A DNA stretch of 64,000 nucleotides from Candidatus Woesearchaeota archaeon (GTDB lineage: Archaea > Nanobdellota > Nanobdellia > Woesearchaeales > 21-14-0-10-32-9): contig JAIPET010000001.1 in the NCBI GenBank assembly GCA_021736975.1, positions 26,147 to 90,146 of the forward strand. The letters are read 5' to 3'. The notes beneath the pieces were generated by a model, which saw only the letters and a list, made by a program, of their open reading frames with translations, ran no database searches and was not told the DNA's origin. Shown piece after piece: positions 45,667 through 61,037 of the stretch. The translations under genes were made by a program, and so were the position numbers. Position 1 is the stretch's first letter, and every line of letters begins with the position of its first letter.

Positions 45667-48069
45667 ATGAAATACGAATTAATAGGATTAGGAAACCCGA
45701 TGATGGATATAATGTTAGAAGTCTCTGATGAAAAATTACAAGAATTAAATTTACAAAAAGGACAATGCAACTTAGTAGATGAAGAAACAATAAAAAAATT
45801 AGAATCGCAAATAGATGAATCAAATGGAAAATTGATTTTAGGCGGATCAGTATCAAATATGATTGCAATATTCTCGCAATTAGGCGGAAAATCAAAATTT
45901 ATAGGAAAAATAGGTTCTGACAAAATAGGTCAAAAATATGAAGAAGGAATGAAAAAAATAGGAGTAGATCCAAATCTAATAATTTCTGAAAAAATGACAG
46001 GACGAAATTTAAATTTTGTGACTCCAGACTCAGAAAGAACAATGACAGTTCATCTAGGTTCTGCATTAACATTAAGATCAGAAGACATATCAGAAGAGAT
46101 AATACAAGAAACAAAATATTTCCAAGTAGCAGGATACGTATTAGAAGACGAAAATCTAAGAACTGCAACAATAAAAGCATTCAAAATAGCAAAACAAAAA
46201 GGAGCAAAAATATCAATAGACTTAGCAGATCCATGGCTGGTAGAAAGATGTAAAAACTCTTTATTAGATATAGTTAAAGAACACGCAGACATATTATTTG
46301 CAAACGAAGAAGAAGCAAAAAAAATAACAGGAAAAGAAACAGCAAAAGAATCAATAGAAGAACTATCAAAATATGTAGATTTAGTAATTGTAAAAATAGG
46401 AAAAGAAGGAAGCATAATAAAAAAACAAAACGAAAAAATAATCACAATAAAAGGATTTAAAGTAGAAGCAAAAGACACAACAGGAGCAGGGGATAGCTAC
46501 GCAGGAGCATTCTTATATGGATTAACACAAAATTGGCCACTAGAAAAAACAGGAAAACTAGCATCCTTTATAGCATCAGAAGTTGTAAAAATCATAGGTG
46601 CAAGATTAACAAAAATACCTGAATACGAACACATATTCAAAAATACATTTTCAACGGAGGAAACAAAAATGGATTATAAAGTAGCAGATATATCGCAAGC
46701 AAAATACGGAAGACAAGAAATAACAATAGCAGAAAAAGAAATGCCAGGACTAATAGCACTAAGAGAAAAATACGGCGAAGAAAAACCACTAAAAGGCGCA
46801 AAAATAATGGGCTCACTACACATGACAATACAAACCGCAGTACTCATAGAAACATTATCTGAATTAGGAGCAGACGTAAGATGGTGCTCATGCAATATTT
46901 ATAGTACACAAGACCATGCAGCAGCAGCAATAGCACAAACAGGAATACCTGTATTTGCATGGAAAGGAGAAACACTAAAAGAATACTGGTGGTGCACAGA
47001 ACAAGCACTAACTTGGCCAGATGGAACAGGACCAGACCTAATAGTTGATGATGGAAGCGACGCAACAATGCTCGTTCACAAAGGAGCTGCAGCTGAAAAA
47101 AATCCTGCTTTGCTAAACATTGATTACAGTAGTGAGGGTGAAGATTACCAAGAACTAATAAAATTAATAAAAGAATCATATCAAAAAGACAAAACTAAAT
47201 GGACAAAAATCGCTGAATACATAAAAGGAGTAAGCGAAGAAACAACAACAGGCGTAAATAGACTATACCAAATGATGAAAAACAAAGAATTACTATTTCC
47301 TGCAATAAACGTGAATGACTCAGTAACAAAAAGCAAATTTGACAACCTATACGGCTGCAGAGAATCATTAGCAGACGGAATCAAAAGAGGAACAGACGTA
47401 ATGATAGCAGGAAAAAAAGTTTTAGTATGCGGATATGGAGATGTAGGGAAAGGATGCGCACACAGCATGAAAAGCTATGGTGCTAGAGTTACAGTAACCG
47501 AAATAGATCCAATATGCGCATTACAAGCAGCAATGGAAGGATACGAAGTAAAAACCATTGAAGATGTCGTATCGGATGTAGATATATTTGTAACAACAAC
47601 AGGAAATAAAGACATAATAACAATACAGCACATGGAAAAAATGAAAGACAACGCAATAGTTTGCAACATCGGACATTTTGACAACGAAATCCAAGTAGAA
47701 AAACTAGAAAAATATCCAGGAATAAAAGAAGAAAACATAAAACCACAAGTAGACAAATTCGAATTCCCAGACGGACATTCAATAGTTTTACTAAGTAGAG
47801 GAAGACTAGTAAATCTAGGAAATGCAACAGGACACCCAAGCTTTGTAATGAGTAACAGTTTTACAAACCAAGTACTAGCACAAATAGAACTATGGAAAAA
47901 CAAACACGAAATAGGAGTAAGCGTACTTCCAAAAGAACTAGACGAAGAAGTAGCAAGACTGCACTTAGCAAAAATAGGAGTGAAACTAACTAAACTAAGC
48001 AAAGAACAAGCAGACTACATAAACGTTAAACAAGAAGGACCATATAAACCAAATCACTATAGGTATTAA
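45667..48069 (+). CDS. fused adenosine kinase (PfkB family) and S-adenosyl-L-homocysteine hydrolase
   Basis: N-terminal half has the PfkB signature [13 protein letters not shown]; C-terminal half has SAHH hallmarks ([20 protein letters not shown]-binding [10 protein letters not shown]); single uninterrupted 800-aa ORF. Confidence 0.8.
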
Positions 48070-48258
48070 TTTTTTTTTTATTTTTTACTTTTTGGGCATG
48101 CATAAATTATGTATTTATATCCGCGGAAAAAATATGGATGCGACCGTAATCAGCTAATGCTGATTGAATATAGTTGTTTTATGTGTTTTTTCTGCAAGAA
48201 AAAAAGCCGAAGGCTCAGTTCAAAAAATATTTTTCGCACTTCTTCAAAAACGAGCTTT

Positions 48259-48717
48259 TTACTTTTCAAAATAAGTTTTATATGACCTTAAAGTTGCATT
48301 TCCTATGCTTCTTGAACCAAAATTCCTATATAGAAATCCTAAAAATCCTGGAAATTGTACATTACTTATAATTAGATGAAAATTGACAACCTTGCCTTTA
48401 CTAGAAAACTCACAAAAATAATGTGACTTTCCATTCATCTTTTTTCCGGCTTGGTATTCTTCATCGAATTCAATTACAAATTTATCTGTTTGGACACTTT
48501 TAACAATATTTGTACGTTTCATAAGTCCTTCATTGTTTTTAATTATTACAAAATCCTTCCCTTCCTTATCCAAAACAACATTTGAAATTCCAGGCATTAG
48601 GCTAACTACACCAACAAAATGTTTCCCAATTTCTGCAAGTGATTTTTTAACTTTTTGTATATCGCAATCAATTTGATTAGAACCATCGAACCAAACAGAT
48701 TTTTTTAATTTAGTCAT
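48259..48717 (-). CDS. hypothetical protein
   Basis: 152-aa ORF bracketed by an 18-bp perfect inverted repeat. Confidence 0.4.
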   Translation of the reverse strand: MTKLKKSVWFDGSNQIDCDIQKVKKSLAEIGKHFVGVVSLMPGISNVVLDKEGKDFVIIKNNEGLMKRTNIVKSVQTDKFVIEFDEEYQAGKKMNGKSHYFCEFSSKGKVVNFHLIISNVQFPGFLGFLYRNFGSRSIGNATLRSYKTYFEK

Positions 48718-48897
48718 ATAAAACTTATTTCTTTATTATTATATAAATGTATTCGTCATCCAAGATAAATATTTTTTTAATTGAATGCGCTATGTGTTAA
48801 ATGATTGTGTGGTAGAATGAAAGAAGCAATATTTTGTTTAAATGTTGATAAGTTGTGTGAGGCAAAGTCGAAACCCGTAGATTTTTATTATTGCGCG

Positions 48898-49179
48898 TTA
48901 TTTGTAAATATTTTTTCTATGGCCTATTTCAATAACAATAATTAAAAGTTTGCCTGCTTTAATGTCAATAATTACTCTATAGTCTCCAACTCGTAATCTA
49001 AAATAAGGAGAAGCAACTAATTTTTTAACGTGAGAATGTGGTCTAATTCTACATCTTTCTAATGTAGAAATAATTCTTCTAGAATCTTGTTTATTTAGTT
49101 TATTTAGGAATTTTTTAGATTCGTTTGTAAAAAAAAGATCAAACACTAAAAAATCACCTCGTGATTTTGTGTGCACCAA
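48898..49179 (-). CDS. RelE/ParE-family type II toxin
   Basis: ...YFRLRVGDYRVIIDI...IIVIEIGHRKNIYK. Confidence 0.7.
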   Translation of the reverse strand: MVHTKSRGDFLVFDLFFTNESKKFLNKLNKQDSRRIISTLERCRIRPHSHVKKLVASPYFRLRVGDYRVIIDIKAGKLLIIVIEIGHRKNIYK

Positions 49180-49203
49180 AAATTTTTAATTTTTAAGTGC
49201 ATT

Positions 49204-49422
49204 TTACATTCCTAATTCCTTTTTAACATCTTCAAGAGAATAAACTCTTCCTGCTTTAATATCTTCTTCAGCTAGTTTGATTCTTTTTTTAGTTTCTTCA
49301 GATAATTCCATGGAATCCTCTAAAGCATCCCAAATTACTTCTTCATAAGATTCTTTATCATACATCTTTCTCTCTTTTAGTTTTGAGAGCAATTCTTGAC
49401 TTACTGATATTGTTGTTGCCAT
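49204..49422 (-). CDS. antitoxin candidate (RelB-like) upstream of RelE
   Basis: 72-aa acidic protein immediately upstream of and co-oriented with the toxin. Confidence 0.45.
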   Translation of the reverse strand: MATTISVSQELLSKLKERKMYDKESYEEVIWDALEDSMELSEETKKRIKLAEEDIKAGRVYSLEDVKKELGM

Positions 49423-49999
49423 AACAACTATATAATTGACTATATATATAAATATTTTGTTTTTTTAAGGCTTAAAAGAAAATTAGAACCTAAATACAAT
49501 TGCAACTAATCCTTGTAGGGCTGAAATTTAGTACCTCGTTCCGAAGGAAAATTTTTGAGTAAGCGGGCGGGCGACATTCTAAGCAAATTGGGATAGGATT
49601 ACTAAAGAAATTATTGCAAGAACAGATTTAATACCTGTATCGGGACATGAATATACTCATAGAGTGCAACATAACAATGGAGTTGTGTCTAAAAAATATT
49701 CAATATTTATGGAAGGTCATGCAAGGGGAGTGCAAAGACAATTATCTGAAGATTATCAAGAGTGAGAAGACAACGAAGCATTTCTCTATAACATTTTGGA
49801 CATCACAGTTGGAGAATTTAAAAGTACATATTTATGGATGTGTAAAAAGTTAGGCCAAGAACCAAGTAAAAGTTTGTTAAAAACAAAAAGCATACGAAGC
49901 AGGAAGAAAATAAATTTTACTTTTTTTTAGCTTTCCTTTATTCTTATTTTATCTTTCGGTTTAGTCAAAGCCCTATTCTATTTTTAGCCCAAATCTCAA

Positions 50000-50042
50000 A
50001 TTGCAATTAATCCTTGTTATACGTTTTTTCTGCAAGAAAAAA
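50000..50042 (+). repeat. dif-like site followed by the hairpin TTTTTTCTGCAAGAAAAAA; start of a 130-bp repeat module
   Basis: ATTGCAATTAA-TCCTTG-TTATACG then a perfect 8-bp stem with GCA loop; the module 50000-50130 is about 95% identical to 56125-56245. Confidence 0.6.
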
Positions 50043-50155
50043 AGCTGAAGGCTCAGTTAAATTTTCACGTTAATAAATATCGACCAAAGGGAGCCTATAT
50101 GTCCGAAGGACGAGTTGGGGCGTTTTAAATAGTTAAATATATAATGAGTTAATGT

Positions 50156-51159
50156 TTGTTTGTTCTTATGGTTGCAAACGATGATGAAATTAGAACAATA
50201 TTCAAATCATTAGATTTAAACATAAATAATATTTCTAAAGTCAAAACACTTGCTAATTTCTTGGTTAAAGTTGAAACTGATAAAGGGAATTATTTTCTAA
50301 AGATTTATGATAGTAAAATAGAAGCTAAGACAGGTTACAAATTAGCTCATTTGTATCCGCTTTTATTAGAAAATAATATTCCTGTTCCAAAAGTTGTCAA
50401 ATATGATGACAGTTTAGAATTAGTTAAGCATCCTTACTTGATAATTACTGAAATTGAAGGTCAAATGCTTTGCGATGTAATTGAGACAATGAGCAGAAAA
50501 GAAAAAGTTTCTTTTTATTATGAATTTGGAAAAATAATTGCGAATTTCCATTCAATTACTTTTGATAAATTCGGAGAAACTTTTGATGGTAAAACTGTTC
50601 AGAATTTTACTGAAGCAAATAATAAAGGTCCGTTTGATAATTGGAAAGATATGCATAAAGAAATAATCGAATTTAGGTTAAATATTTTCAGAAACTCAAG
50701 TTTTGAAGATCTAATTGAACCTATTAGTTCTTGGTTTGAAAAAAATTCAGATCTTATTGATTATCATATTACTCCGAGACTACTTCATATTGATTTAAAT
50801 CAAAAAAATGTATTCGTGAATAATAATAAAATTTCAGGAATAATTGATTTTGATGGAGCTTTTGTTGGACATAATGAAGAAGAATTAATGAGAACTGAAG
50901 GTGCAAATTTTTCAAATGATGAAGAATTAAAGCAATCATTTTTCGAATGATATACAGAAATTATTAAATTAGATTCTGATTATGAACTACGAAGAAAATA
51001 CTATTATTTTGCAAGATTACTTGTTCATACTGATTGCATAATTCAATATGGTGAAAGTTATGTTGATGTTAAAAAAGAAGGAGATATTGTTAGAAAAGAA
51101 ATTTTTAAATTATTAAATGATGAAGAAATTGATTTTAATAAGAATAAGCGAAATACTTA
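50156..51159 (+). pseudogene. aminoglycoside/choline-kinase-type phosphotransferase (APH family) with in-frame TGA at 50948-50950
   Basis: HIDLNQKNVFV (HxDLxxxN) and IIDFDGAF (DFG/IDxD) motifs; the same frame stays open for 69 more codons after the TGA, giving a typical family length of about 334 aa. Confidence 0.55.
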
Positions 51160-51214
51160 ATCTAGCTCCAACTCTTTTTGTTTCTTTTTTCTAAAAAGAA
51201 AATAGTGAAAATTT

Positions 51215-51238
51215 AATTGCGTATAAGCCTTGTTATAC
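51215..51238 (+). repeat. dif-like palindromic site ATTGCGTATAA-GCCTTG-TTATACG
   Basis: 7-bp perfect inverted arms CGTATAA/TTATACG around a 6-bp spacer; a member of an at least 10-copy family, all in + orientation, lying between the single-gene units. Confidence 0.6.
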
Positions 51239-51302
51239 GTTTTTTCTGCAAGAAAAAATCGCGAAGTGAAACGTAGCGACAGTATGACGCAAGGTGGTGG
51301 CG

Positions 51303-51860
51303 TTACAGAAGTGGCTTAATATTATTAAATAATTCTTCAAATTCAATATATCCTGCTTCCTCGTTAAAGTGTCCTGCATTTTTTATAATATTAGGTATTG
51401 CACCAAGTTTATCTGCTAACTCATTTGCACATTCTATTGGAACGTAAGGGTCATTATCTGAATGATAAATAAAGAATTGTTTACAATTTTGTTTTATCTT
51501 TGACCAATCAAAGGTTTTATCTACAAATGTTCTATTGATTGAATCAAAAGTTTCATTTCCTAATAATTTTAAGAAACCTGAAATGAAATATGAACCTTTG
51601 ATTGTTACATTAATATGTTCCAATACACTTAGTAAAAATGCAGGTGCTAAACTATGACCTACAAAAATGGTATTCTCATCAATTTGGTTTTCATATTCTG
51701 CAAAAATAGTATTCCAGTTTTCCAATGATTGATTTTCAGGAGTTGGAAATTCAGGAACAATCACTTCGTGATTTAATTCTTCTAATTTTTGCTTTAACCA
51801 AGGAAACCAGTTTTCTTTTGGATTACCAAAAGCACCATGAATGAGGAAAATTTTTGTCAT
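51303..51860 (-). CDS. alpha/beta hydrolase (YdeN/RBBP9-like serine hydrolase)
   Basis: 185 aa, GHSLA nucleophile elbow, D and H later in the sequence. Confidence 0.55.
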   Translation of the reverse strand: MTKIFLIHGAFGNPKENWFPWLKQKLEELNHEVIVPEFPTPENQSLENWNTIFAEYENQIDENTIFVGHSLAPAFLLSVLEHINVTIKGSYFISGFLKLLGNETFDSINRTFVDKTFDWSKIKQNCKQFFIYHSDNDPYVPIECANELADKLGAIPNIIKNAGHFNEEAGYIEFEELFNNIKPLL

Positions 51861-51920
51861 AATAATATAATAGAAAGCAGGATTTTATAAGATTTGTGAT
51901 TAAGCCACCACCTGAGTAAT

Positions 51921-51944
51921 ATTGCGTATAATCCTTGTTAAACT
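51921..51944 (+). repeat. dif-like site (right arm degenerate)
   Basis: ATTGCGTATAA-TCCTTG-TTAAACT. Confidence 0.5.
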
Positions 51945-52064
51945 CTCCGTTAGGATTGATTTTTAGTGCAACGATGCCGAAGGCAAAAAATCAAAGTCGA
52001 GAAAGAGGGCGTTCTATTTAATGAGCGAATGCAATACATCAAGAACAGGAATATAGGGGCACAC

Positions 52065-52982
52065 TCACGTTTCTTTTAGTTCATATACATTATCCAATAA
52101 ATCTGGCTTTGGAATTGAAGATAATTCTCCTTTACTTCCACTTTTAACCCATTTAATATGCCATAAATATAGAAGTCCGACAGACATTTGTTCTAAATAT
52201 ATTCCTAATGTCCAAATTATTCCTTCATAAATTATTACTACTGTCCAAAATAAAGATGAGAATGCAACACCAGATTTATCCAAATAAATAATTATTATCA
52301 ATGGAATAGCCATAAATAATGATGCAATACCTGTTAAAGTATATGTTGTAATAAATTGTAATGGATGTTTTTTTATGACTTCAAGAGATCTTTTAAACGC
52401 TGAAAATGGTCCTTTATTTTCCCAAGCAATAGCTGGTAATGTTAAAAAGATGTACATTCTAACTAATTTTTCAAACATTCTTAATCCGAGTTTTAACCAA
52501 CTAAAGGGTCCAGAGTTTGCTCCTCCTAATGTTAATGCAGCATCTCTAGGAGATGGTTCTGGTCTTGAACTTCTTCCTTTCTTTTTACTAGTTAAAACTC
52601 TAATAATTAGTAGAATAAACCAAACAATTGCCCAAATTAGCGCGACTGGAATTACTTTTATCAAATCTAAAAATACTGCTTCTTTTATTGCTTTTCCAAA
52701 TGATATTTTTTCTCCGAATTCAATCTGTTGCATGAATTCAAGCATCATAATATTTGCAACACAAATAATTAATGTAATCAGGAAAATTACTCCAAATATA
52801 ATTAATAGTAGTAATCCTAAATCATTTGGTGCTTCAAAATAATACCTTAGATATAATATAATTGATGCAACTAAAATCCATGAGAAAAATATTGGGATTA
52901 GAAAAATTGGTTTTCTAAAAAGAAATTTGAATGAATCAGTAAAAAGTTTCCATCCTTCGCCTAGTTTACCTAAAAATGCCAT
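52065..52982 (-). CDS. polytopic membrane protein
   Basis: 305 aa with several hydrophobic helices; flanked by two nested perfect 14-bp inverted repeats. Confidence 0.45.
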   Translation of the reverse strand: MAFLGKLGEGWKLFTDSFKFLFRKPIFLIPIFFSWILVASIILYLRYYFEAPNDLGLLLLIIFGVIFLITLIICVANIMMLEFMQQIEFGEKISFGKAIKEAVFLDLIKVIPVALIWAIVWFILLIIRVLTSKKKGRSSRPEPSPRDAALTLGGANSGPFSWLKLGLRMFEKLVRMYIFLTLPAIAWENKGPFSAFKRSLEVIKKHPLQFITTYTLTGIASLFMAIPLIIIIYLDKSGVAFSSLFWTVVIIYEGIIWTLGIYLEQMSVGLLYLWHIKWVKSGSKGELSSIPKPDLLDNVYELKET

Positions 52983-53084
52983 TTAAATATTAAATGTCAA
53001 GAGTAATATATAAATATTTCTAGAGTGAGTGTGCCCCTTTCAAATCTTTAGCCCTCTTTCTCGATTGAGTTTAAGTGCTGTTAT

Positions 53085-53125
53085 CTTTCCTGACGACCAA
53101 AGGGAGGAAAGCGCAGCGGGGCTCG
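53085..53125 (+). repeat. repeat module B: CGACGACYRAARGGAGGARAGCGCAGCGGGGC
   Basis: Copies at 53085-53125, 53958-53995 and 58897-58930, partial at 60072-60100; contains the SD-like AAAGGAGG. Confidence 0.5.
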
Positions 53126-53299
53126 AAGGTGTAGCGAAGCGGAACCATCGAGAGTTGAGAATAAGTCCGTCCATCAGATGAACGAAGTGGTACATCTAGA
53201 CAAATCATCGAGGGGTTTGGTTGTTAGAAAACTTGTTGCCACTAAATAGAGACTATAAAGCGAAAGGTTTTTAAATACATAATCATTTTCCTTTTTAAA

Positions 53300-53902
53300 A
53301 TGACAATAATAATTCCAAAATATTCAGAATCAAAAATTGTTGAACCAACAAAACAAGATTATCAACAACTAAGTATTGATATGCCTGATAAGAAAAATAT
53401 AAGATTAGCATCATTAGATGAAATAAAAACTTTTTCTGGAGTTGATTTATCATATGGAGTTCCAATTATTAAAAAAGGATTTTTTGGAAATAAAAATTCA
53501 GATTTATATGCACCAACTGATGAAGATTGTTCTAGATTAGGAATAGAAAATAATTATGCCGTATCTCAAGAAGGTGATGTAATGCTAAAAAGTTATTCTT
53601 TAGAAGATGGTGTTGCATATGTTTCTGATCCACATGGAAGTTTAGTTGAAACTTTTGCAAAAAGTTCAGCAATAGCATCGGATGTAATCAAAAATGGAAT
53701 TGTAAATATGAAAGTATTTATCAAAGATGCAGGTATTGGAAATTTAGTATTAACCCATCCTGATGTGGGTACTTCTTTAAAAAATCATGGATCAAAATTT
53801 GTTGATACCTTATTTCCAAATTATAGAAAAATAATGGCAACAATACCAGATTCAAGTTCGCAAGGTATAACATCTAACGGACTAGAATATGCATTATATT
53901 AA
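53300..53902 (+). CDS. hypothetical protein
   Basis: 200-aa ORF; TATA-like TTTTTAAATA about 25 bp upstream; flanked by a 14-bp perfect inverted repeat. Confidence 0.45.
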   Translation: MTIIIPKYSESKIVEPTKQDYQQLSIDMPDKKNIRLASLDEIKTFSGVDLSYGVPIIKKGFFGNKNSDLYAPTDEDCSRLGIENNYAVSQEGDVMLKSYSLEDGVAYVSDPHGSLVETFAKSSAIASDVIKNGIVNMKVFIKDAGIGNLVLTHPDVGTSLKNHGSKFVDTLFPNYRKIMATIPDSSSQGITSNGLEYALY

Positions 53903-54102
53903 ACCAAACCCCCTTCTTTTTTTTAGGACTTATTCTCAATTGAAGATAATTCCTGTTATGTCTCCCGACGACTAAAAGGAGGAGAGCGCAGCGGGGCAAA
54001 ATCCAAAGGATTTTGAGTTCAGAATTCGGGCGTTATTAATATTAACTTTAAAGTGGTAACAGTACCGAAAGATTTATAAATATAAAGTCAATTCATTTTA
54101 TT

Positions 54103-54387
54103 ATGAGATTATATCAAAAAATTATCGCTGGAGGAATAGTAATTGCTGGTTTGGCTGGACTTACTGGATGTAAAGATAATTCTAATCAAGAATCTCAAAG
54201 AAATGAACCTGCTCCATCACATTTTGCGACAGTTCCAATGGTTTATGAAACTGGAATGTCAATGACGAGTGGAGATTTTGATGGAGATGGAGATTTAGAT
54301 TTGATTGTTGGAGCAAAATATCCTGGAAAAAGCGAAGGACGAGTTTATAGATTCAACAATGATGGAGAAGGTAATCTTTCTCAGTAA
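54103..54387 (+). CDS. lipoprotein with FG-GAP/VCBS-like repeat
   Basis: Signal peptide and lipobox LTGC; DFDGDGDLDLIVGAKY; TATA-like TTTATAAATA about 25 bp upstream. Confidence 0.5.
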   Translation: MRLYQKIIAGGIVIAGLAGLTGCKDNSNQESQRNEPAPSHFATVPMVYETGMSMTSGDFDGDGDLDLIVGAKYPGKSEGRVYRFNNDGEGNLSQ

Positions 54388-54433
54388 ATCTTTCGGTTTC
54401 TATAATTATACTTTTAGCCCGAATTCTGAATTA

Positions 54434-54472
54434 GACATAATCCTTGTTATACGTTTTTTCTGCAAGAAAAAA
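54434..54472 (+). repeat. dif-like half site plus hairpin TTTTTTCTGCAAGAAAAAA
   Basis: ...ATAA-TCCTTG-TTATACG followed by the hairpin; a variant module is shared with 51239-51300. Confidence 0.5.
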
Positions 54473-54518
54473 TTGCGAAATGAAATGGAGCAACAGTATG
54501 ACGCAGAGAGCTTTTCCG

Positions 54519-55016
54519 TTACTTGTTGAAAAAATTAATACATTCTGGAATTACTTTTAGAAAATTCTCTGGAGAATTATTTAAACTTTGAAGTAATTCC
54601 TCTTTTGAAAACCATTTGATTTTTTCAACTTCATCTTCTTGAATTGTAAATTGTTTTATATCTTTATCGACTAAAGCAAAAAACCATTGAGTAAAATGTT
54701 TGTGTTCTCCATCGTGAAAATGATGAAATGACTTTTGAAATTTTTGATTCTTTAAACCAATCTCTTCTTCAGCTTCTTTAACAATATTGGATTCATATGA
54801 TTCTCCTTCATCAATAGTTCCAGCAACTGCTGGACCCCATTTCCCAGGATTATTTTTTTTGTTAAATGATCTTTGTGCAAGGAGAATCTCGCCATTAGAA
54901 TTTTGAATCCATAAAGCTGAAACTCTATAAATATCAGATTGGTTTAAAGTTCCTCTTTCTTTAGAACCTATGATTTCATCATTTTCATTTACAATAACTA
55001 TTTTTGCTTTAGACAT
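54519..55016 (-). CDS. NUDIX hydrolase
   Basis: Nudix box GTIDEGESYESNIVKEAEEEIGL. Confidence 0.75.
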   Translation of the reverse strand: MSKAKIVIVNENDEIIGSKERGTLNQSDIYRVSALWIQNSNGEILLAQRSFNKKNNPGKWGPAVAGTIDEGESYESNIVKEAEEEIGLKNQKFQKSFHHFHDGEHKHFTQWFFALVDKDIKQFTIQEDEVEKIKWFSKEELLQSLNNSPENFLKVIPECINFFNK

Positions 55017-55075
55017 ATCTTTTTACAATTCAAGAAGTAATATAAATTTATCGAAAGGAAAAGCTCTCGAGTAAT

Positions 55076-55099
55076 ATTGCGTATAACCCTTGTTATATT
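55076..55099 (+). repeat. dif-like site
   Basis: ATTGCGTATAA-CCCTTG-TTATATT. Confidence 0.5.
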
Positions 55100-55167
55100 C
55101 CCCGTAGGGCAGAAATTTAGTGCAACGTCCCGAAGGGAAATTTCAGAGTTTTGGAAATGGGCCGTCA

Positions 55168-56064
55168 TTAAAAATTTGATATTAAAAAATCTGTAACAAC
55201 TTTTGCTAATTCTTCTTCCTTATCTTCAAAATCGTGATTAGTTTTTGGAATAATTACTGCTTTGGTTCTGCTGTTACTTTTCTTCAATAATTCAACTGAT
55301 TCGTTGACTGACATCATCATATGTTCAGAACCTTCTTTAACAACATCTGCATTTGTGAATTTGTCATTATTTGAAATTACTGCCAAAATAGGAACTTTAA
55401 TTTTAGAATAAAAATCCAATTTCTTTAGACGAAATGGAAATGCTTTAGATAATTCTGAATTGTCTGAAAACTGATTTATGAACGATTCGGCACTTTTTGG
55501 CAGTATCCCTGCGTGACTATACCATTGTGTTGTTAAAAATTGTTCTCTTTTATCTTTTTCAATTAGGTTTTTTGCTTCAGTAAATAAGTCATCTTTACAG
55601 TTAGTTTTATCCATGAATTTATGGGCACAACCAAAAGAATCAGAAAAACCTAAAAGTACAATTCCAGTAATTTTATCTTTATACTTTCCTTTATTCATGT
55701 AATAAACAATTTTTTCAGTTCCTAAACTATGGCCTTGTAGGATTATGTTTGAATATCCCTTATTTATGACAAATTCAATCCATGCATCAATATCCAAAAG
55801 ACAATCCTCAAAATTCTCGACCGCTGAGCCTGTTTTTTGCCAAGTGTGTGTCAAAACAGAATTTCCTCTGTTGTTAATTGATAACCACGAGAATCCATTT
55901 TTGGGAAAAGCAACAGCCATATTCTCAAAGAATGGCTCTTCATAAAAATTGCTTGCAGAACCATGAATATTAATCACGATTTTGTCTGAATTTTTATTTT
56001 CCAAAAATAATCCGTGAAGAATTAACTTGTCTTTTGTTGTTACAGATACTATTGGGTATTTCAT
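55168..56064 (-). CDS. alpha/beta hydrolase (esterase/lipase-like)
   Basis: GHSLG nucleophile motif, 298 aa. Confidence 0.6.
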   Translation of the reverse strand: MKYPIVSVTTKDKLILHGLFLENKNSDKIVINIHGSASNFYEEPFFENMAVAFPKNGFSWLSINNRGNSVLTHTWQKTGSAVENFEDCLLDIDAWIEFVINKGYSNIILQGHSLGTEKIVYYMNKGKYKDKITGIVLLGFSDSFGCAHKFMDKTNCKDDLFTEAKNLIEKDKREQFLTTQWYSHAGILPKSAESFINQFSDNSELSKAFPFRLKKLDFYSKIKVPILAVISNNDKFTNADVVKEGSEHMMMSVNESVELLKKSNSRTKAVIIPKTNHDFEDKEEELAKVVTDFLISNF

Positions 56065-56124
56065 ATCTATATAGATTTGAAGAAGAATTAAAAAGATTTC
56101 GTTTTAGGCCCCTTTCCAAAATTG

Positions 56125-56245
56125 AATATAAGCTCTGTTATACGTTTTTTCTGCAAGAAAAAAAGCCGAAGGCTCAATTAAATTTTCACGTCAATCAATA
56201 ACGACCAAAGGGAGCCAATATGTCCGAAGGACGAGGGGGGTCCAG
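56125..56245 (+). repeat. dif-like half site, hairpin and 100-bp repeat module (second copy)
   Basis: Near-identical to 50000-50130; ends in the left inverted repeat of the next unit. Confidence 0.6.
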
Positions 56246-56286
56246 ATTTTTTGTTTCTTTTTTTTTAAAAAAGAATATTGAATCTT

Positions 56287-57714
56287 TTAGTTTCTCATAA
56301 TTTTTTCAAAAATTAATCCTACAAATATTCCAACTATTCCTGCTAACAAATTCATTATTGCCGGTTCAAATCCAAATAAAGGAATCTTAAGAAATAAGTT
56401 TAATATTACTGATATTAATCCGAAAGATAGGGCAAACCAACCAACAGTTTTTGATTTAATTCCATGTAATGGGGCTAATAAGCAAGGAAGCAAACCCATT
56501 AAACCCGCAATTTGAATAGTTGCTAAACTTACGATGAATTTAGGAGGTGAAATAGAAAGTATTACACTTATCACTAGAACAGATATCATCAATATTCTGC
56601 TTAGAGATACTTTAATTTTTTCTCTTTTCAAAACATTTTCTTCAAATATTGCTGTTACTGAAAGTAGAACTGAATCTATTGTTGATATGGATGCTGCAAC
56701 AACTCCGACAATCACAAGTATGGATGCAATGATTATCAATCCTAGTAAAAATCCTGTTGAGTTTGACAAAACACTTTGAATAACATCTCCGACTACAAAA
56801 TCAGGGGTTGAAACAGCAACATTTGCTGCAGCGTATAAACCAATTAATCCCGCAAACAAAATTGTAAAAACTCCTGCAATTGGATACCACAAGCTAATCA
56901 TCTTTAGCGTCTTTTTATTTGCTGCCATTATTCTTACACTAACTTGAGGTGTTGCTAGAACAATGAATGCAAAAAGTATTGCATAGGAGATTAAAAGAGG
57001 TACTGTGAAATAGCCATTCGGACCTGGAATTGAAGTTAGTCCTGCTTCACTAATCTTTGCTAAAAAATTAGTGCCTTTCATAAAAAATAACAATACTGCT
57101 CCAAAAACACCTACTCCAACTAAAGTGAATATTCCTTGAATTTGATCAGTCTTTGCGTCAACAATAGAACCGCCCTTCCATAAATAAAATCCAACTAAAG
57201 CCGCAAGAATTATTAAACCAGTGATATAGCTAATTGCTCCATCTGTATATGAAACAAATAATTTGCCTATTCCAGCTAGTTGCAATATTAAATACGGAAA
57301 CAAAAATAATATTGTTGTCAAAGATAATATTTTTGAAAGACTTTTTGAATTATATCCATCTAATAACAATCCAATAGGAGAAAGAAAAGTTTTATTGTTT
57401 TTTTCTTGGTCCTGTCTTAGTTTTGATATTTTAACACCATAAGTCATTAAAATAATAGGAGTTAACATCACACCTAAACCGAGAAAGAAAAATGCACCGA
57501 CTCCATGTGCATAATATAATGCGGGTAAACCAACAACAGTGAATGCACTAAATGTTGTAGCAAAAAGAGAAAAGAAAATAAGGTTCGGACTAAGTCTTCC
57601 AATAGCAGTAAAAAATTCATAATTAGTGATTTTTTTAGGGAGTTTAATTTTAACCCATAAAGAAATTCCAATAACCAAGAGAATGGATATAATTGCAATT
57701 GTTAGTTCAATCAT
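56287..57714 (-). CDS. polytopic membrane transporter (sodium:solute symporter-like)
   Basis: 475 aa, about 12 hydrophobic helices. Confidence 0.4.
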   Translation of the reverse strand: MIELTIAIISILLVIGISLWVKIKLPKKITNYEFFTAIGRLSPNLIFFSLFATTFSAFTVVGLPALYYAHGVGAFFFLGLGVMLTPIILMTYGVKISKLRQDQEKNNKTFLSPIGLLLDGYNSKSLSKILSLTTILFLFPYLILQLAGIGKLFVSYTDGAISYITGLIILAALVGFYLWKGGSIVDAKTDQIQGIFTLVGVGVFGAVLLFFMKGTNFLAKISEAGLTSIPGPNGYFTVPLLISYAILFAFIVLATPQVSVRIMAANKKTLKMISLWYPIAGVFTILFAGLIGLYAAANVAVSTPDFVVGDVIQSVLSNSTGFLLGLIIIASILVIVGVVAASISTIDSVLLSVTAIFEENVLKREKIKVSLSRILMISVLVISVILSISPPKFIVSLATIQIAGLMGLLPCLLAPLHGIKSKTVGWFALSFGLISVILNLFLKIPLFGFEPAIMNLLAGIVGIFVGLIFEKIMRN

Positions 57715-58219
57715 AATTTAGATTTATTAATTAAAGTTTATAATGTTTTCTAAAATCAACGTGGACTTGGAATGTTTTTCTCAGTAAATCAATTTCGAAC
57801 AACAAAGTTGTGAGCCAATATGTGCGTAGCACCTGGACTCCCCCTCTTTTGCTTCTTTTTCTAAAAGAAGAATGAGATTTAGACTAGTGAAAATTTAATT
57901 GCGTATAACATCGCGATTAAGAGAAGTTGTTTGCAGTGACTTTAATCTATAAATAAGCAAACAATTTGGGCTAATTTCTGGTCGGGCACGAAGCCGATTT
58001 GCGAAGCAAAAAGAAATTACCTCTTAATCTGCTGTTGGGAGATTTTTTCTGAAAGAAAAAACACGAGCTGACGCACAAAGCGTCCTCGTGAGTAAAAAAT
58101 TATCTTTGGGTGGGGGGCGGAGGTGGAAACTCCGCAATTAAATAGGAAAAATTATCGTGTTATTTTGAGAAATTAGGGTTGGGCGAAAGACTTATAAACT
58201 ATAGGGTGATAACAAGAAT

Positions 58220-58570
58220 ATGATAAAAGAAATTTGGAAAGAATGTGTAGCACTTGGCTTAGCAGGAGCAATTTATTTTTCTCCAGCTGCGGTTGAAATT
58301 TACATGAACAGCAAATTTAAGGACATTGGAGAAGAATTTTCTGTAAGAGAAATTGGTAATCAAAGACAATTTTATATTGGTGCCGAGATGGGATTGGCTC
58401 GTCTTGCAATAGATGAAAACAAAGACGGCACCCTTGACAAAGTATATAGAAATATGCCAATTTCTCCAATGATGGGTGGTCCAGGATACAGATTGATGGA
58501 AACAGAAACAACCGCAACCGACAGAGAAAAATTTGCAAGGGCAGAACGACTTCTAAGCCAAGCAAAATAA
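58220..58570 (+). CDS. hypothetical protein
   Basis: 116-aa ORF; TATA-like CTTATAAACT about 25-30 bp upstream. Confidence 0.4.
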   Translation: MIKEIWKECVALGLAGAIYFSPAAVEIYMNSKFKDIGEEFSVREIGNQRQFYIGAEMGLARLAIDENKDGTLDKVYRNMPISPMMGGPGYRLMETETTATDREKFARAERLLSQAK

Positions 58571-58877
58571 ATTCTTTCTTTCAAAAATAAAGCCCTACCC
58601 TAAGAAAAATTTGGGAGAGCAAAGCGAACCCTTTACCCTTTGTTATATGAGGTGCGAAGCATTTCATTTCTGTTTTTGTTTGGTCGGGTAAAAGAAGTTT
58701 TTCATAGTATTTTCACGATGATTTTTCAGTATCTCGGGTGGGAAGAAAGATAATTTTTTATTTCCCCGAGCCGAAGAATGAGGCGAGTGGTGTAAATCCC
58801 AACGTCAGGGATATACGAAGTTTTTCTGGAACGAAGCGGAAGAAAAATTTGGGTGAAGCCCGAGCCGAGGGCTGAAC

Positions 58878-58897
58878 CGTATATCCCTTGTTATACG
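58878..58897 (+). repeat. dif-like site
   Basis: CCGTATAT-CCCTTG-TTATACG. Confidence 0.5.
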
Positions 58898-58969
58898 CCC
58901 CGACGACTGAAAGGAGGAGAGCGCAGCGTGGTGCGAACGAAGTGAGCAAGTCAGTGGAGTGGCGTTAAT

Positions 58970-59935
58970 CTAATAAGAAGTCGTTCTCGTTAAATGATAT
59001 GGTTTATCATTTTTTAATTTTTCTTGTCCAAGAATCCAAATATGATCGTTAACATGAATAGAATCTGCGTGTGCAATCTTCTTTTTTATCTTTTGTTTGA
59101 TTAGTTCTACAACCCAAACAGTATTTGCTCTTAATTCTATTTCTTCCTCGCTGTCTTTATCAATTTGAATTTGATTATCAATTTTATCAGCGAGGTAATC
59201 TGAATAAGAGAAAATACCTAATCTTCTTAAAACAAAAGGTAATTTATAATCGGCACACGCAGTTAGTTTATCAATATTTTTTAACTTGCCAAATTCGTGT
59301 CCGTTGAAAGCTTGCACAATATCAGCAACTAAAAGTTGTGCACGCTTGTAAAAATAAACTCTCTTTCCGTTGTAAGTTGATGAGTCCTCAAAAGAAGGAA
59401 AATTCTCAACTATCAAACTCAATAATTTTTGTGAATCGCCATTTGCTTTTTCTAGGAGATTAGTAAAATCGCCGTCAAATTTCTTGAGTAATGTTGTTCC
59501 AATTTCTCTTAAAATATTCAACCTTTCTTCAAAAAGAGGAATTTGAACATTTCCCTCCAAGATTTTACTAAGCTCTTCTTCTTTAATCTCAGAAAGAAAT
59601 TTTGCGTCCAAAATGGGAATTTTATTTTCTATTGCTCTGGCAACAGCACTTATCATTCCATACGCACCATCAACTTCTTCGGAATGATAAATTATTTTCC
59701 ATTTTGGGTCGCCCCAATATGAAAAACTGATTGAGTTAAACACGAGTAAAAAATGCAGTCTATCTTTCGGGCTTAACTTTTTGAGATTAAATGGCGATTC
59801 ATCAATCCAATGTTTGATATGAGAATGACTAAAATAATCAACAAACTCATCAACTTTTTCAGAGTTTATTTTTACGTGTTGAGAATTATCAACAACGAAT
59901 TTGCAAGTTTCAATTATTCTATTCATGTTATCCAT
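58970..59935 (-). CDS. hypothetical protein (possibly DUF2419 / queuosine-salvage-like)
   Basis: 321-aa ORF; the family assignment is tentative, from overall pattern only. Confidence 0.35.
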   Translation of the reverse strand: MDNMNRIIETCKFVVDNSQHVKINSEKVDEFVDYFSHSHIKHWIDESPFNLKKLSPKDRLHFLLVFNSISFSYWGDPKWKIIYHSEEVDGAYGMISAVARAIENKIPILDAKFLSEIKEEELSKILEGNVQIPLFEERLNILREIGTTLLKKFDGDFTNLLEKANGDSQKLLSLIVENFPSFEDSSTYNGKRVYFYKRAQLLVADIVQAFNGHEFGKLKNIDKLTACADYKLPFVLRRLGIFSYSDYLADKIDNQIQIDKDSEEEIELRANTVWVVELIKQKIKKKIAHADSIHVNDHIWILGQEKLKNDKPYHLTRTTSY

Positions 59936-60015
59936 TATAAATTAAAAAATGATACTAATTAAAAAATGTTTCTATAACGACTTCCACTTTGTAGCCACTC
60001 CACTGATTGCGTATA

Positions 60016-60039
60016 ATCGCTGTTCATTTTCCCGAGCGT
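60016..60039 (+). repeat. dif-like site (right arm degenerate)
   Basis: ATTGCGTATAA-TCGCTG-TTCATTT, overlapping the end of the right inverted repeat of the 58970 unit. Confidence 0.45.
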
Positions 60040-60215
60040 AATGAAATGAAGCGAGAGCCTGCAAGGCGTGGCACGAGCGGAACGACTGAAAGGAGTGACC
60101 TCGTGAGTTTCCAATCTCCGAAAATTCTTTGATATCATAGTTGCTGAAATGTATATTGACTATGTAGTAGTAAATAAATAGAAAGATTTAAAAGTAAACA
60201 GATTCTTCTTTTTCT

Positions 60216-60719: not shown

Positions 60720-61037
60720 TCTTTCTATTTTACAAAATACTTTTCAGCAATTTCGTTTAATCAGCGATGTTATGCGACAATTTTAATTTCGCATTGGAGC
60801 GTTAAGCGAAGATATCAAAATCAGAATTTTTGGTTTACCGACGCTAGGAGGAGATTGGAAATTGAAATGAACAATATATATACGAAAAAAGGCAAATTTT
60901 GCTTTTTTAGGACTTCAGAGTCTTAAATTTATGATTTCGATTCAGAAAAAGTGTTTTGATTTATTAGTGTCAAATCCGAAAATTTTCCAAAATTTTGATG
61001 GTAGCACATATAAATTTCATAATATTCACGTTCATTA

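Follow-up and report, generated by a model that had tools for sequence, protein, structure and literature searches.

Mini-hairpins of the GCGNAGC type are far stabler as DNA than as RNA, and the natural settings known for the DNA forms are single-stranded-DNA signals (PMC13037366). Those with the sequences CCGAAGG and GCGAAGC typify the G4 phage origin, ssiA and the promoters of the N4 virion polymerase (PMC13037366). For the inverted repeats that flank the dif sites of Thermococcales, binding of a partner protein has been proposed (PMC2958812). The window analysed here, 64,000 nucleotides (64 kb) from the genome of a tiny archaeon of the Woesearchaeota, contains about 14 gene cassettes of mobile appearance in a 12.7-kb array (48.16–60.89 kb) located between ahcY and a XerA-like gene. 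This array is integron-like, the cassettes appearing to be serially integrated at a chromosomal dif-type site beside xerA; no description of an arrangement of this kind was found in the literature searched. The short repeat modules of the array are probably hairpin-forming inserts within recombination sites and not genes. We consider it fairly probable that they are attC-like, single-strand-folded parts of Xer/dif-type cassette recombination sites.

The cassettes carry genes for ParE/antitoxin, APH, hydrolases, NUDIX, an SSF transporter, Q_salvage and CrtO, which face either way relative to the modules, and the gene content of the array included neither a recombinase gene nor a replication gene within a cassette. 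The XerA-like gene closes the array. The cassette order was identical in the sister MAG GCA_021734925.1, and comparisons including this MAG revealed no excised circle, empty site or rearranged array, nor was a recombination event seen directly. The array is bordered by the following genes:

45667–48069: ahcY-pfkB fusion gene, with the first junction (J0) just downstream
61038–61853, + strand: XerA-like tyrosine recombinase, 271 aa, Pfam Phage_integrase and SAM_4

Each junction of the array has a dif-like site of the form ATT-N5-TAA / spacer / TTA-N5-(A)GT. The 24-nt dif-like pattern was matched six times against 0.04 expected, and a weight matrix derived from these junctions gave 11 strong matches, all on the + strand at 49.5–60.0 kb, with a single marginal match in the remainder of the 64 kb. 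In most cassettes a module of 30–78 nt interrupts the right arm after 7–8 nt. It is followed on its 3′ side by (A)GT, the outer bases that complete the arm, and then by a stem unique to the cassette, the complement of which is found at the opposite end of that cassette, followed by the uninterrupted left arm. The module is inside the right arm, not beside it. Other junctions and the terminal site have uninterrupted right arms ending in ..AAGT. In environmental junctions the spacer length ranged between 6 and about 14 nt, which is unusual for the core site of a tyrosine recombinase. The junctions and modules are listed below, where H1 denotes the 19-nt hairpin TTTTTTCTGCAAGAAAAAA:

48163–48185, + strand: J0, the first junction, read from the sequence; left arm ATTGAATATAG, which is chromosomal, spacer, right arm TTATGTG belonging to the first cassette; its counterpart in a relative, at L005:5030, is similar
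48186–48236, + strand: module A′; H1 48186–48204, H2 (AGCC-GAA-GGCT) 48205–48215, then CAGTTCAAAAAATATTTTTCG
49499–49570, + strand: J1; left arm ATTGCAACTAA, spacer TCCTTG, truncated right arm, then a module C copy
50000–50121, + strand: J2 with module A; left arm 50000–50010, spacer 50011–50016, inner right arm TTATACG 50017–50023
50024–50121, + strand: module A of J2; H1 50024–50042, H2 50043–50053, outer arm CAGT and extension 50054–50068
50069–50121, + strand: distal parts of the same module; second branch region 50069–50111, cassette stem GAGTTGGGGC 50112–50121
51165–51219, + strand: left-hand partner of module A in the APH cassette; stem GCTCCAACTC 51165–51174, T-rich palindrome branch 51182–51200
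51205–51219, + strand: GTGAAAATTTAATTG in this partner, pairing with 50054–50068
51216–51301, + strand: J3 with module A2; H1 51240–51258, variable hairpin TCGC..GCGA 51259–51279, CAGT 51280–51283
51292–51301, + strand: J3 cassette stem AGGTGGTGGC; partner stem 51904–51913
51921–52010, + strand: J4 with module C variant; inner right arm TTAAACTC 51938–51945, branch hairpins 51946–51994, AGT 51995–51997, stem 51999–52010
53051–53062: partner of the J4 stem; the partner left arm is GAGTTTAA at J5
53064–53168, + strand: J5 with module B; branches 53089–53152, AGT 53153–53155, stem TTGAGAATAAGTCC 53155–53168; partner stem 53926–53939
53939–54031, + strand: J6 with module B; inner right arm TTATGTCT 53956–53963, branches 53964–54015, AGT 54016–54018
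54018–54031, + strand: J6 cassette stem TTCAGAATTCGGGC; partner stem 54417–54430, partner left arm AGACATAA at J7
54430–54517, + strand: J7 with module A2; H1 54454–54472, hairpin TTGC..GCAA 54473–54493, CAGT 54494–54497, stem 54506–54517; partner stem 55057–55068
55076–55163, + strand: J8 with module C; inner right arm TTATATTC 55093–55100, branches 55101–55146, AGT 55147–55149, stem 55149–55163; partner stem 56107–56121
56121–56245, + strand: J9 with module A; H1 56145–56163, H2 56164–56174, CAAT and extension 56175–56189, stem GAGGGGGGTCCAG 56233–56245
57833–57901: left-hand partners of J9; stem 57833–57846, T-rich palindrome 57853–57869, and 57887–57901
57898–58061, + strand: J10, with an uninterrupted (‘class II’) right arm, ATTGCGTATAA-CATCGCGA-TTAAGAGAAGT; the interval includes J11 and an H1 copy
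58020–58061, + strand: end of the ‘E’ cassette, which follows J10 and has no ORF, in CCTCTTAA (J11, 58020–58042), then an H1 copy with one mismatch (58043–58061)
58626–58653, + strand: J12, a possible degenerate junction, uncertain and seen in sequence only, GAACCCTTTAC-CCTTTG-TTATATG
58874–58963, + strand: J13 with module B; branches 58899–58948, AGT 58949–58951, stem CAGTGGAGTGGC 58952–58963; partner stem 59994–60005, end-pairing score 44
60006–60122, + strand: J14 with a composite module; A2-like hairpin, GCCT-GCA-AGGC, B core ACGACTGAAAGGAG (60031–60105)
60106–60108, + strand: AGT of J14, then a stem pairing with 60847–60860
60750–60778, + strand: J15, irregular and uncertain, ATTTCGTTTAA-TCAGCGATG-TTATGCGAC; left arm like the terminal left arm of relatives
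60861–60889, + strand: J16, terminal, ATTGAAATGAA-CAATAT-ATATACGAAAA; the right arm is chromosomal and adjoins the recombinase gene (in relatives the equivalent is ATTTCATTTAA-CCATAT-ATATGCGAAGT)

All modules are on the + strand, and the repeat families described in the original prediction proved to be real. H1 occurs exactly at 48186, 50024, 51240, 54454 and 56145. It had been placed after TTATACG in five places, which holds for four of them, the fifth arm being TTATGTG (48179–48185). Module A is complete at 50024–50121 and 56145–56245. The supposed partial copy at 48185–48215 is not a fragment but belongs to the separate, widespread variant A′, which was detected in at least 11 metagenome contigs. 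The sequences regarded as variants of module A at 51239–51300 and 54454–54505 form a family of their own, A2 (51240–51283 and 54454–54497), composed of H1, a variable hairpin and CAGTATGACGCA. Of the four sites proposed for module B, the exact consensus was confirmed at 53966 and 58901 and the core ACGACTGAAAGGAG at 60082, but the copy at about 53091 has one mismatch. Module C, expected at 49514 and 55098 with a variant at 51941, was found at 49514–49560, 55102–55146 and 51946–51994, and the T-rich palindrome and its relative were recovered at 51182–51200 and 57853–57869. The A-type and B modules consist of at least two self-contained hairpins with a short linker or none. Seven different, fully complementary 4-bp stems were observed for the second hairpin; its own halves paired in 28 of 38 sequences, compared with 35 of 1174 combinations of halves from different sequences. 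These compensatory changes demonstrate that the hairpins are real, and covariation of the stems would also be expected if RNA of the same strand folded.

The two ends of one cassette are complementary. When the right flank of each junction was compared with the reverse complement of the left flank of the next one, the median score was about 26, versus 17.0 ± 2.9 for 1374 other flank pairs (p = 4e-12); flanks of the same junction paired no better than this background (p = 0.30). At the five variable arm positions the match within a cassette was 3.66/5, versus 2.03/5 for other pairs (p = 7e-10). Among independent metagenome cassettes TTATACG was accompanied by CGTATAA in 21 of 22 cases and TTATGTG by CACATAA in 12 of 15 (Fisher p = 3e-6). 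Folding with DNA parameters put the cassette's own left flank first of 14 candidates in 10 of the 13 cassettes of the window, with energies of −32 to −50 kcal/mol versus foreign means of −16 to −31; the J4 cassette reached −50.0 kcal/mol (rank 1/14). The first two of the 13 showed no end pairing on folding, and the J1 cassette is degenerate, with unpaired ends (own-flank rank 8/14). In 18 of 20 folded cassettes positions 1–2 of the left arm (A, T) paired with the T and G of (A)GT, located 39–86 nt past the start of the right arm.

Nearly all loops of the module hairpins are, on the + strand, GNA triplets, as is typical of stable DNA mini-hairpins. In the intergenic DNA of the window array we counted 10 GNA triloops on the + strand and none on the − strand, in the arrays of relatives 15 and none, and at 83 metagenome junctions 110 and 2, while 69 kb of control DNA gave 10 and 10. 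A strand test on the long stems gave 54 G·T versus 35 A·C mismatches (p = 0.056). In relatives and at the 83 metagenome junctions these modules recurred with position and orientation unchanged and with compensatory changes in sequence. Of 122 hairpin matches in metagenomes, 83 immediately follow the right arm. Cores of modules B and C were detected at other loci, always in the same orientation, and the ‘E’ element without an ORF was also present in L055 and L089, among others.

These observations suggest a model in which the + strand becomes single-stranded, or the cassette is excised as a circle, and the ends of one cassette, being complementary, would therefore pair. Such pairing would rebuild the full 11-bp arm duplex, with a conserved T·G wobble at arm position 2, and the module would protrude from it as hairpin branches. 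The product would be an attC-like site, conserved in shape and variable in sequence, that integration splits in two, and the XerA-like enzyme would cut within or at the edge of the spacer. A point against the model is that a hairpin with the spacer as its loop would, in contrast to a canonical two-arm core site, provide only one arm duplex. Families A, A′, A2, B and C would represent lineages of sites reused by unrelated genes.

The original prediction named small RNA genes, terminators and recombination-associated leaders as possible roles and was supported in part; the last comes closest to the evidence, since the modules are physically part of recombination sites, in the right arm, flanked by cassette-specific pairing stems. 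It is unlikely that their main role is to terminate transcription or to insulate the cassettes from one another, with polymerase stopped both ways at the T-rich hairpin (T6 ... A7) and at T-rich palindromes and with transcript 3′ ends stabilised by the other hairpins. A T6 run does follow the arm palindrome on the + strand and a T7 run the second hairpin on the − strand (scan: 48216–48204, 56175–56163), T-rich palindromes are located at gene ends (51182–51200, about 56255–56285), and 52 of 70 first ORFs past hairpin-type modules were on the − strand, so that gene 3′ ends face the module. However, modules B and C have no T-run, terminator-like structures in the region were as frequent as expected by chance (6 found, 6.0 expected), the loops on the − strand would be UNC triplets without special stability, and the fixed insertion point in the right arm, the trailing (A)GT and the far-end pairing would be left unexplained. 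Termination is plausible only as a secondary role, for the T-rich hairpin: this has a T-run on either strand, precisely where the cassette ends, and therefore probably also stops transcription in both directions. Slightly less likely than a main role in termination is that the modules are double-stranded accessory sequences which, like those of the plasmid sites cer and psi, serve as binding sites for XerA or for an architectural protein and set direction or topology without hairpin extrusion. Their presence on only one side of the core site, their conserved short boxes (CAGTATGACGCA, AGTGCAACG, AGAGCGCAGCG, GAGTAAT) and the parallel with the repeats at Thermococcales dif sites (PMC2958812) agree with this, but compensatory stem changes and a strict GNA strand bias are unexpected for double-stranded protein-binding sites, the families have structure rather than sequence in common, and the modules are within the arm, not next to it.

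The strict strand bias and the likeness of CCGAAGG/GCGAAGC to the G4 phage origin, ssiA and the N4 promoters (PMC13037366) would also fit single-strand initiation signals like ssi/sso, with the folded + strand recruiting primase or RNA polymerase to convert a single-stranded cassette copy to duplex. As both their location in a recombinase arm and their pairing with the left arm speak for recombination, and the cassettes have no replication gene, we think this improbable as the main role, although it could be compatible with a recombination site. It is very unlikely that the modules encode small RNAs or serve the cassette genes as cis-regulatory RNA leaders, even though the hairpins are conserved with covariation, module B has a GGAGG box and cassettes without an ORF are made only of such hairpins. 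Oligo-T stops archaeal transcription, and A-type modules open with a T6 run at the 5′ end, where transcription should therefore stop. An Rfam search of the modules gave no match even at E ≤ 1, the cassette genes lie both ways relative to the modules, the structure takes in the cassette's far end as well as the recombinase arms, and stems of only 2–4 bp with GNA triloops are weak in RNA and far stabler in DNA (PMC13037366). The 85% identity of the two A modules (50024 and 56145) over 139 nt might be taken to indicate inert remains of local duplication within one genome. This is hardly credible, as the modules are widespread, rather than single-copy and absent from relatives: distant relatives and over 80 environmental contigs have them, beside different genes, and they also occur beside Xer-like genes only 34–38% identical, which further site arrays adjoin.

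The presumed catalyst of the cassette recombination considered here as the preferred reading is the XerA-like protein, although another enzyme encoded elsewhere in the genome may serve instead. Its best solved relatives are XerA 4a8e (9.5e-35) and IntI4 2a3v (7.7e-31), but the protein does not have the IntI insert. It is 70–84% identical across many Woesearchaeota and resembles the conserved housekeeping XerA. In relatives L005, L007, L011, L013, L014 and L017 we found site arrays in one orientation upstream of xerA, and in L011 a homologous CrtO cassette had a different module and a different position in the array.

The repeat modules lie within a chromosomal array of small gene units at positions 48163-60889, bordered on the left by an ahcY-pfkB fusion gene (45667-48069) and on the right by a tyrosine recombinase gene (61038-61853) that starts 148 nt beyond the array end; the layout was matched in relatives. 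The array consists of approximately 14 short units, here called cassettes, with unrelated accessory genes on both strands (nine on the minus and five on the plus strand). None of the cassette ORFs in the window array matched a recombinase family. A dif-like site was found at each unit boundary, with the consensus ATTGCGTATAA-TCCTTG-TTATACG and the general form ATT-N5-TAA / spacer / TTA-N5, in which the left arm closes one cassette and the right arm opens the next. The 24-nt dif-like pattern gave 6 matches against 0.04 expected, and a weight matrix detected 11 strong sites, every one on the plus strand and within the array. At least 15 dif-like sites were present in 12.7 kb, and uninterrupted right arms occurred only at the terminal site and at the sites that we term class II.

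Genes carried by the cassettes of the window array
ParE toxin and antitoxin
APH-type kinase
Two hydrolases
DUF4013 membrane protein
FG-GAP protein
NUDIX protein
SSF transporter
Queuosine-salvage protein
CrtO-like acyltransferase

The fusion gene at the left border encodes 800 aa, with an S-adenosylhomocysteine hydrolase and a PfkB-family kinase domain; the border genes of relatives are different ones. The APH cassette gene contains an in-frame TGA at 50948-50950, after which the frame stays open for 69 further codons, to 51160; the gene is called at 260 aa in the sister genome, and the TGA could mark a pseudogene, recoding or a sequencing error. A stretch identical to the window is present in GCA_021735585.1. 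Comparison with the sister genome GCA_021734925.1 showed the same cassette order; the sole difference in called genes is the FG-GAP protein, of 94 aa in the window (54103-54387) versus 150 aa in the sister locus (L138, 6630-7082). Other features of the window are a Cdc6/Orc1 gene, a type I restriction system and a tailed-virus block.

The original prediction had named three families of repeat modules (A, B and C) together with T-rich palindromes, and its positions proved correct to within a few bases, all on the plus strand. Reading of 47.5-64 kb of the window and a repeat search gave a 19-nt T-rich hairpin, TTTTTTCTGCAAGAAAAAA, with an 8-bp stem and a GCA loop.

Copies of the hairpin TTTTTTCTGCAAGAAAAAA found by sequence search
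48186, plus strand, exact copy
50024, plus strand, exact copy
51240, plus strand, exact copy
54454, plus strand, exact copy
56145, plus strand, exact copy
58043, plus strand, copy with one mismatch

The hairpin had been said to follow TTATACG in five places; four copies do so, and one is preceded by TTATGTG. The module at 48186, which had been taken for a partial module A, is indeed present, as a distinct and widespread variant (A') and no fragment, and the supposed variants of module A at 51240 and 54454 form a family of their own (A2).

The two ends of a cassette were found to be complementary to each other. Each junction's right flank was compared with the left flank of the next junction after reverse complementation, and the median score was about 26, versus 17.0 ± 2.9 for other pairings (p = 4e-12), whereas complementarity between the flanks of one and the same junction was at background (p = 0.30). 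At the five variable arm positions the two ends of a cassette matched at 3.66 of 5, compared with 2.03 of 5 for other pairs (p = 7e-10); examples of matching arm pairs are TTATGTCT/AGACATAA, TTAAACTC/GAGTTTAA and TTAATTGC/GCAATTAA. The pairing was observed independently in metagenome cassettes, where, among the matches listed, 21 of 22 TTATACG arms had CGTATAA as their partner and 12 of 15 TTATGTG arms had CACATAA (p = 3e-6). This test used a specific pattern; a loose pattern of a right arm and the next left arm was swamped by matches within genes. Nine window cassettes had perfect, cassette-specific stems of 10-15 nt. In folds with DNA parameters the cassette's own left end was the best among 14 alternatives for 10 of 13 window cassettes, with energies of -32 to -50 kcal/mol versus means of -16 to -31 kcal/mol for the alternatives. 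Since the two ends of a cassette are complementary and the flanks of a single junction are not, the crossover would lie between the arms, in the spacer or at its edge. An excised circle, or an integrated cassette in single-stranded form, would form a single long, imperfect palindrome with the spacer at its centre. The mismatches in the long stems, examined for strand specificity, comprised 54 G.T versus 35 A.C (p = 0.056).

Two other readings of the junctions were rejected. Spacers that are target-site duplications of a transposon with terminal inverted repeats do not agree with the different spacers found across a cassette (TCCTTG versus GTGCTG), and a crossover at the outer conserved boxes GGGCGTTA / TTTAGCCC, by analogy with that at the integron R box, does not agree with the non-complementary stems that flank one junction.

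The modules proved to lie within the right arm. Of 20 folded cassettes, 18 had the outer bases A1 and T2 of the left arm paired with T and G in an (A)GT past the module, at a distance of 39-86 nt from the first right-arm base. Right arms without interruption, of the form TTA-N5-AGT, were found at 57917 (TTAAGAGAAGT) and at the terminal site of relatives (ATATGCGAAGT). This gives ATT-N5-TAA / spacer / TTA-N5-AGT as the full site, whose only inherent asymmetry is T.G at arm position 2. The right arm is interrupted after its first 7-8 nt by modules A, A', A2, B and C, which are hairpin branches 30-78 nt in length. Within the A families two hairpins abut one another and the arm pieces directly, with zero unpaired linker, so that the fold is a neat four-way junction. 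DNA folding identified the T-rich palindromes as branch hairpins on the left-hand side of an A-type site.

Selection acts on the hairpins as structures, and on a single strand. In the element that follows the T-rich hairpin, seven or more different outer stems, each fully complementary, were found (TCGC/GCGA, TGCC/GGCA, AGCC/GGCT, TTGC/GCAA, TCAA/TTGA, TCGA/TCGA and TGCT/AGCA). Its own halves paired in 28 of 38 distinct sequences, versus 35 of 1174 pairings of halves across sequences. The loops were overwhelmingly GNA triplets, closed by C:G and confined to the plus strand.

GNA triloops by strand
Intergenic DNA of the window array: 10 on plus, 0 on minus
Arrays of relatives: 15 on plus, 0 on minus
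83 metagenome junctions, among the matches listed: 110 on plus, 2 on minus
Control, 69 kb downstream of xerA: 10 on plus, 10 on minus

According to a recent review, DNA mini-hairpins of the GCGNAGC type are extraordinarily stable, their RNA versions being much weaker, and natural examples mark signals in single-stranded DNA, among them the G4 origin, ssiA with CCGAAGG, and N4 promoters (PMC13037366).

Small RNA genes, terminators and recombination-associated leaders had been offered as explanations of the modules. It is mainly the DNA-specific stability of GNA mini-hairpins (PMC13037366) that favours folded DNA over RNA. An Rfam 15 scan of the array gave nothing at the gathering score and, at E<=1, one chance-level hit within a gene, and a tRNA scan found none; with GNA mini-hairpins so much weaker as RNA, small RNA genes are unlikely. 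Termination accounts for part of the observations. The T-rich hairpin has T6 directly after the arm palindrome on the plus strand and T7 directly after the second hairpin on the minus strand, and among the matches listed the genes after hairpin-type modules (A, A' and A2) lay on the minus strand in 52 cases and on the plus strand in 18, so that 52 of 70 run towards the module. These features point to two-way termination at the cassette border as a likely secondary role of the T-rich hairpin family. However, a hairpin with a T-run on both strands is confined to the hairpin-type modules and absent from B and C, and termination fails to explain either these modules or the arm geometry. Scans with bacterial promoter and terminator consensus models, which are ill-suited to archaea, gave counts at chance.

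The recombination option fared best. The modules sit inside the right arm and the cassette ends pair, so that anatomically there is good support for reading them as parts of a recombination site, although no recombination product was seen. Duplication confined to this locus had been named as the outcome that would speak against a wider role of the modules; their presence in relatives and metagenomes goes far beyond local repetition, and the module finding is real.

Fifteen loci of relatives around xerA were fetched, and upstream sequence was retained in six of them (L005, L007, L011, L013, L014 and L017). Each of the six contained an array of like sites in the same orientation, with other gene content (serpin, DEAD helicase, MazE-like and others) and another gene at the left boundary. 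The contigs of L003, L004, L006, L008-L010, L012, L015 and L016 often stop a few hundred bases upstream of xerA, which suggests routine breakage of short-read assemblies by the arrays and hence their under-representation in MAGs. A metagenome scan with the hairpin gave at least 120 stretches; among the matches listed, 83 of 122 occurrences stood directly after ...YTG-TTAT(A/G)(C/T)G and ran on into an A, A' or A2 continuation. Several metagenome contigs had a Xer-like gene 34-38% identical to that of the window, likewise after an array; the modules are therefore common to deep lineages. The cores of B and C (AGAGCGCAGCG, AGTGCAACG and GACTRAAAGGAG) recurred at other loci in constant orientation. 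Between the CrtO cassette of the window and its homologue in L011, both the module and the array position differ. Three IMG/VR hairpin matches, considered as possible viral carriers, all fell within unrelated coding sequence; no module in site context was found on IMG/VR viral contigs, and modules A and B gave no match in plasmid and phage collections.

ORF-less cassettes consisting of hairpins alone were common, both in the window (57917-58033) and in L011, L013, L014, L055 and L089. A widespread ORF-less form, the E cassette, comprises TTAAGAGAAGT, hairpins with GAA or GCA loops, and then CCTCTTAA; it usually stands after the 8-nt spacer CATCGCGA and before a hairpin-type cassette.

Copies of the E cassette
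57917-58033, window
958-1020, reverse strand, metagenome locus L055
120-178, metagenome locus L089

Spacer length varied at metagenome loci including L031, L057, L060, L068 and L125: spacers were of 6 nt (NNNYTG) before interrupted arms and of 8 nt (CATCGNNN) before uninterrupted arms. Hybrid spacers of 10-14 nt also occurred, such as TAA-CATCGCGCTG-TTA. Variable spacer length is atypical of the core site of a tyrosine recombinase.

The recombinase is a 271-aa protein whose best solved relative is P. abyssi XerA (4a8e, 9.5e-35), and the score against Vibrio IntI4 (2a3v, 7.7e-31; 320 aa) was nearly as good. With IntI4 it shares a SAM_4 domain at the N terminus and a ..SPL tail at the C terminus. 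The IntI4 alignment falls into two pieces because the query is without about 45 residues of the IntI-specific insert, its residues 176-199 spanning IntI4 178-247. Homologues 70-84% identical were found in many Woesearchaeota assemblies, often annotated as XerA or XerD, and on this sequence evidence the enzyme looks like the regular Xer recombinase of the lineage. The terminal site beside xerA, ATTTCATTTAA-CCATAT-ATATGCGAAGT, is conserved in relatives. It is followed, up to the xerA start, by approximately 150-230 nt of conserved non-coding DNA (window 60890-61037; L003-L017) with the boxes GAATTC, GGGGCTT and AGAAAAAGTGT..AGTGGTGAA, in which RNAalifold detected no conserved RNA structure. This DNA may be a promoter or an operator, or it may correspond to the attI region of integrons. 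In L003, L010, L011 and L014 the left arm closest to xerA (ATTTCRTTTAA) is kept though the last cassette varies, and homology between L011 and L014 ends at the left edge of this arm, which may be retained to keep the dif site working. Two more ORFs with weak Phage_integrase matches, at 42173-43057 (minus strand) and 44351-45349 (plus strand), lie between the virus-like block and ahcY and show no relation to the array's recombinase.

We rate the array as a fresh version of a kind already known, the site-specific cassette array. As in integrons, short and mostly single-gene cassettes adjoin a tyrosine recombinase gene and a primary site, the sites form family-like lineages conserved more in structure than in sequence and have strand-specific features, ORF-less cassettes and a toxin-antitoxin (ParE) cassette occur, and the recombinase has the SAM_4 domain, the ..SPL tail and the near-equal score against IntI4. 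In contrast to integrons, the recombinase is without the IntI-specific additional domain of about 45 aa near patch III, and the contiguous attC (R''-L''...L'-R') 3' of the gene, with its crossover at one end (between G and TT), is absent. The palindrome of the array is centred on the crossover, so that its halves stand at opposite cassette ends and flank the gene, not the junction. Furthermore, the genes run both ways instead of being mostly co-oriented from a common promoter, the core resembles an archaeal dif site (11 nt, spacer, 11 nt), and the hairpin branches sit within one arm. The system works like an integron but departs from one in the defining features of IntI insert, contiguous attC and gene orientation. 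Described archaeal integrons use IntI and classical attC sites, and some Woesearchaeales genomes are listed with attC clusters and without an integrase (Ghaly et al. 2022, PMC9668308); the supplementary text of that paper contains none of the array's motifs. In the searchable literature, itself incomplete, we found no description of Xer/dif cassette arrays in archaea or DPANN.

Elements of the IMEX type (CTX-phi, TLC-phi, the gonococcal island and Legionella LME-1) have no recombinase of their own and use the host Xer; the cassette ORFs here matched no recombinase family. Like the cassettes, IMEX elements follow one another at a dif-type site and have directly oriented dif-like sites on either side. 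CTX-phi builds its Xer site from a folded single-stranded hairpin. Unlike IMEX, the units here measure 0.1-1.8 kb, carry no replication or virion genes and number a dozen or more per locus; the arm duplex is assembled from opposite ends of the element instead of from a pair of inverted sites at one of them, and the host is archaeal with a single XerA. The pdif modules of Acinetobacter plasmids are also small gene modules between Xer-type sites, reused across contexts, but their flanking sites are inverted and on plasmids, whereas the strong sites here are all on the plus strand, chromosomal and beside xerA, with structured and interrupted arms. With archaeal XerA/dif (PMC2958812, PMC8371274) the array has in common a recombinase closest to P. 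abyssi XerA, imperfectly inverted 11-nt arms and a 6-nt spacer; inverted repeats flank the dif sites of Thermococcales too. Archaeal dif is described as single-copy and, in Thermococcales, as not adjacent to xerA (PMC2958812, PMC8371274), whereas the sites here are numerous, beside xerA and between accessory genes, and not one dimer-resolution site. C-GNA-G triloops on one strand, including CCGAAGG and GCGAAGC, are shared with the DNA mini-hairpins of the G4 origin, ssiA and N4 promoters (PMC13037366), which are priming or promoter signals, while those of the array are embedded in a recombinase arm. The accessory sequences of cer/psi (about 150-180 bp beside the core, with architectural proteins) are similarly one-sided; the modules here lie within the arm.

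The modules probably contribute structurally to an attC-like recombination site, which integration would split into two halves. Its active form would be DNA that is single-stranded or extruded, where the ends pair and so restore the 11-bp arm, and XerA would be the enzyme. An interrupted arm would make a poor double-stranded substrate, complete only once folded. Such folding-dependent completion of an arm would resemble integron attC sites and the CTX-phi attachment hairpin. Folded cassettes strung on single-stranded spacers would tolerate the spacers of 6-14 nt seen in metagenomes. A weak point of this model is that a self-folded circle provides one arm duplex only. We tentatively propose, with somewhat less than even confidence, that DPANN archaea have a second, structurally distinct integron principle, in which an enzyme of the XerA type, lacking the IntI insert, would move single-gene cassettes into and out of the dif locus, the ends of a 'split attC' would pair in single-stranded DNA and rebuild the arm, and the extruded modules would act as a switch that makes the site active only when unwound.

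If this is correct, a gene-capture platform would have been built on the housekeeping machinery of Xer/dif dimer resolution, in tiny-genome organisms that rely on hosts and gene exchange. The arrays would be an accessory-gene reservoir in Woesearchaeota, and their repeat-rich nature would account for the relatives' contigs that stop just before xerA. They would also offer a natural comparison for the origin of integrons from Xer-like enzymes, with the same logic and another site geometry. The compact DNA signals TTA-N5, GNA-loop hairpins and then AGT could be used to find further arrays, and the modules could serve the design of structure-dependent recombination tools.

The tailed-virus-like block of the window (293-33500) includes a portal gene (293-2392) and a tape-measure gene (20776-24960). 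An RT-16 RNA motif (84 bits; 3359-3502, minus strand) and a reverse transcriptase with RVT_1 and HTH_40 domains (9581-11254, plus strand) were found within this block, and together they may represent a diversity-generating retroelement of an integrated archaeal virus.
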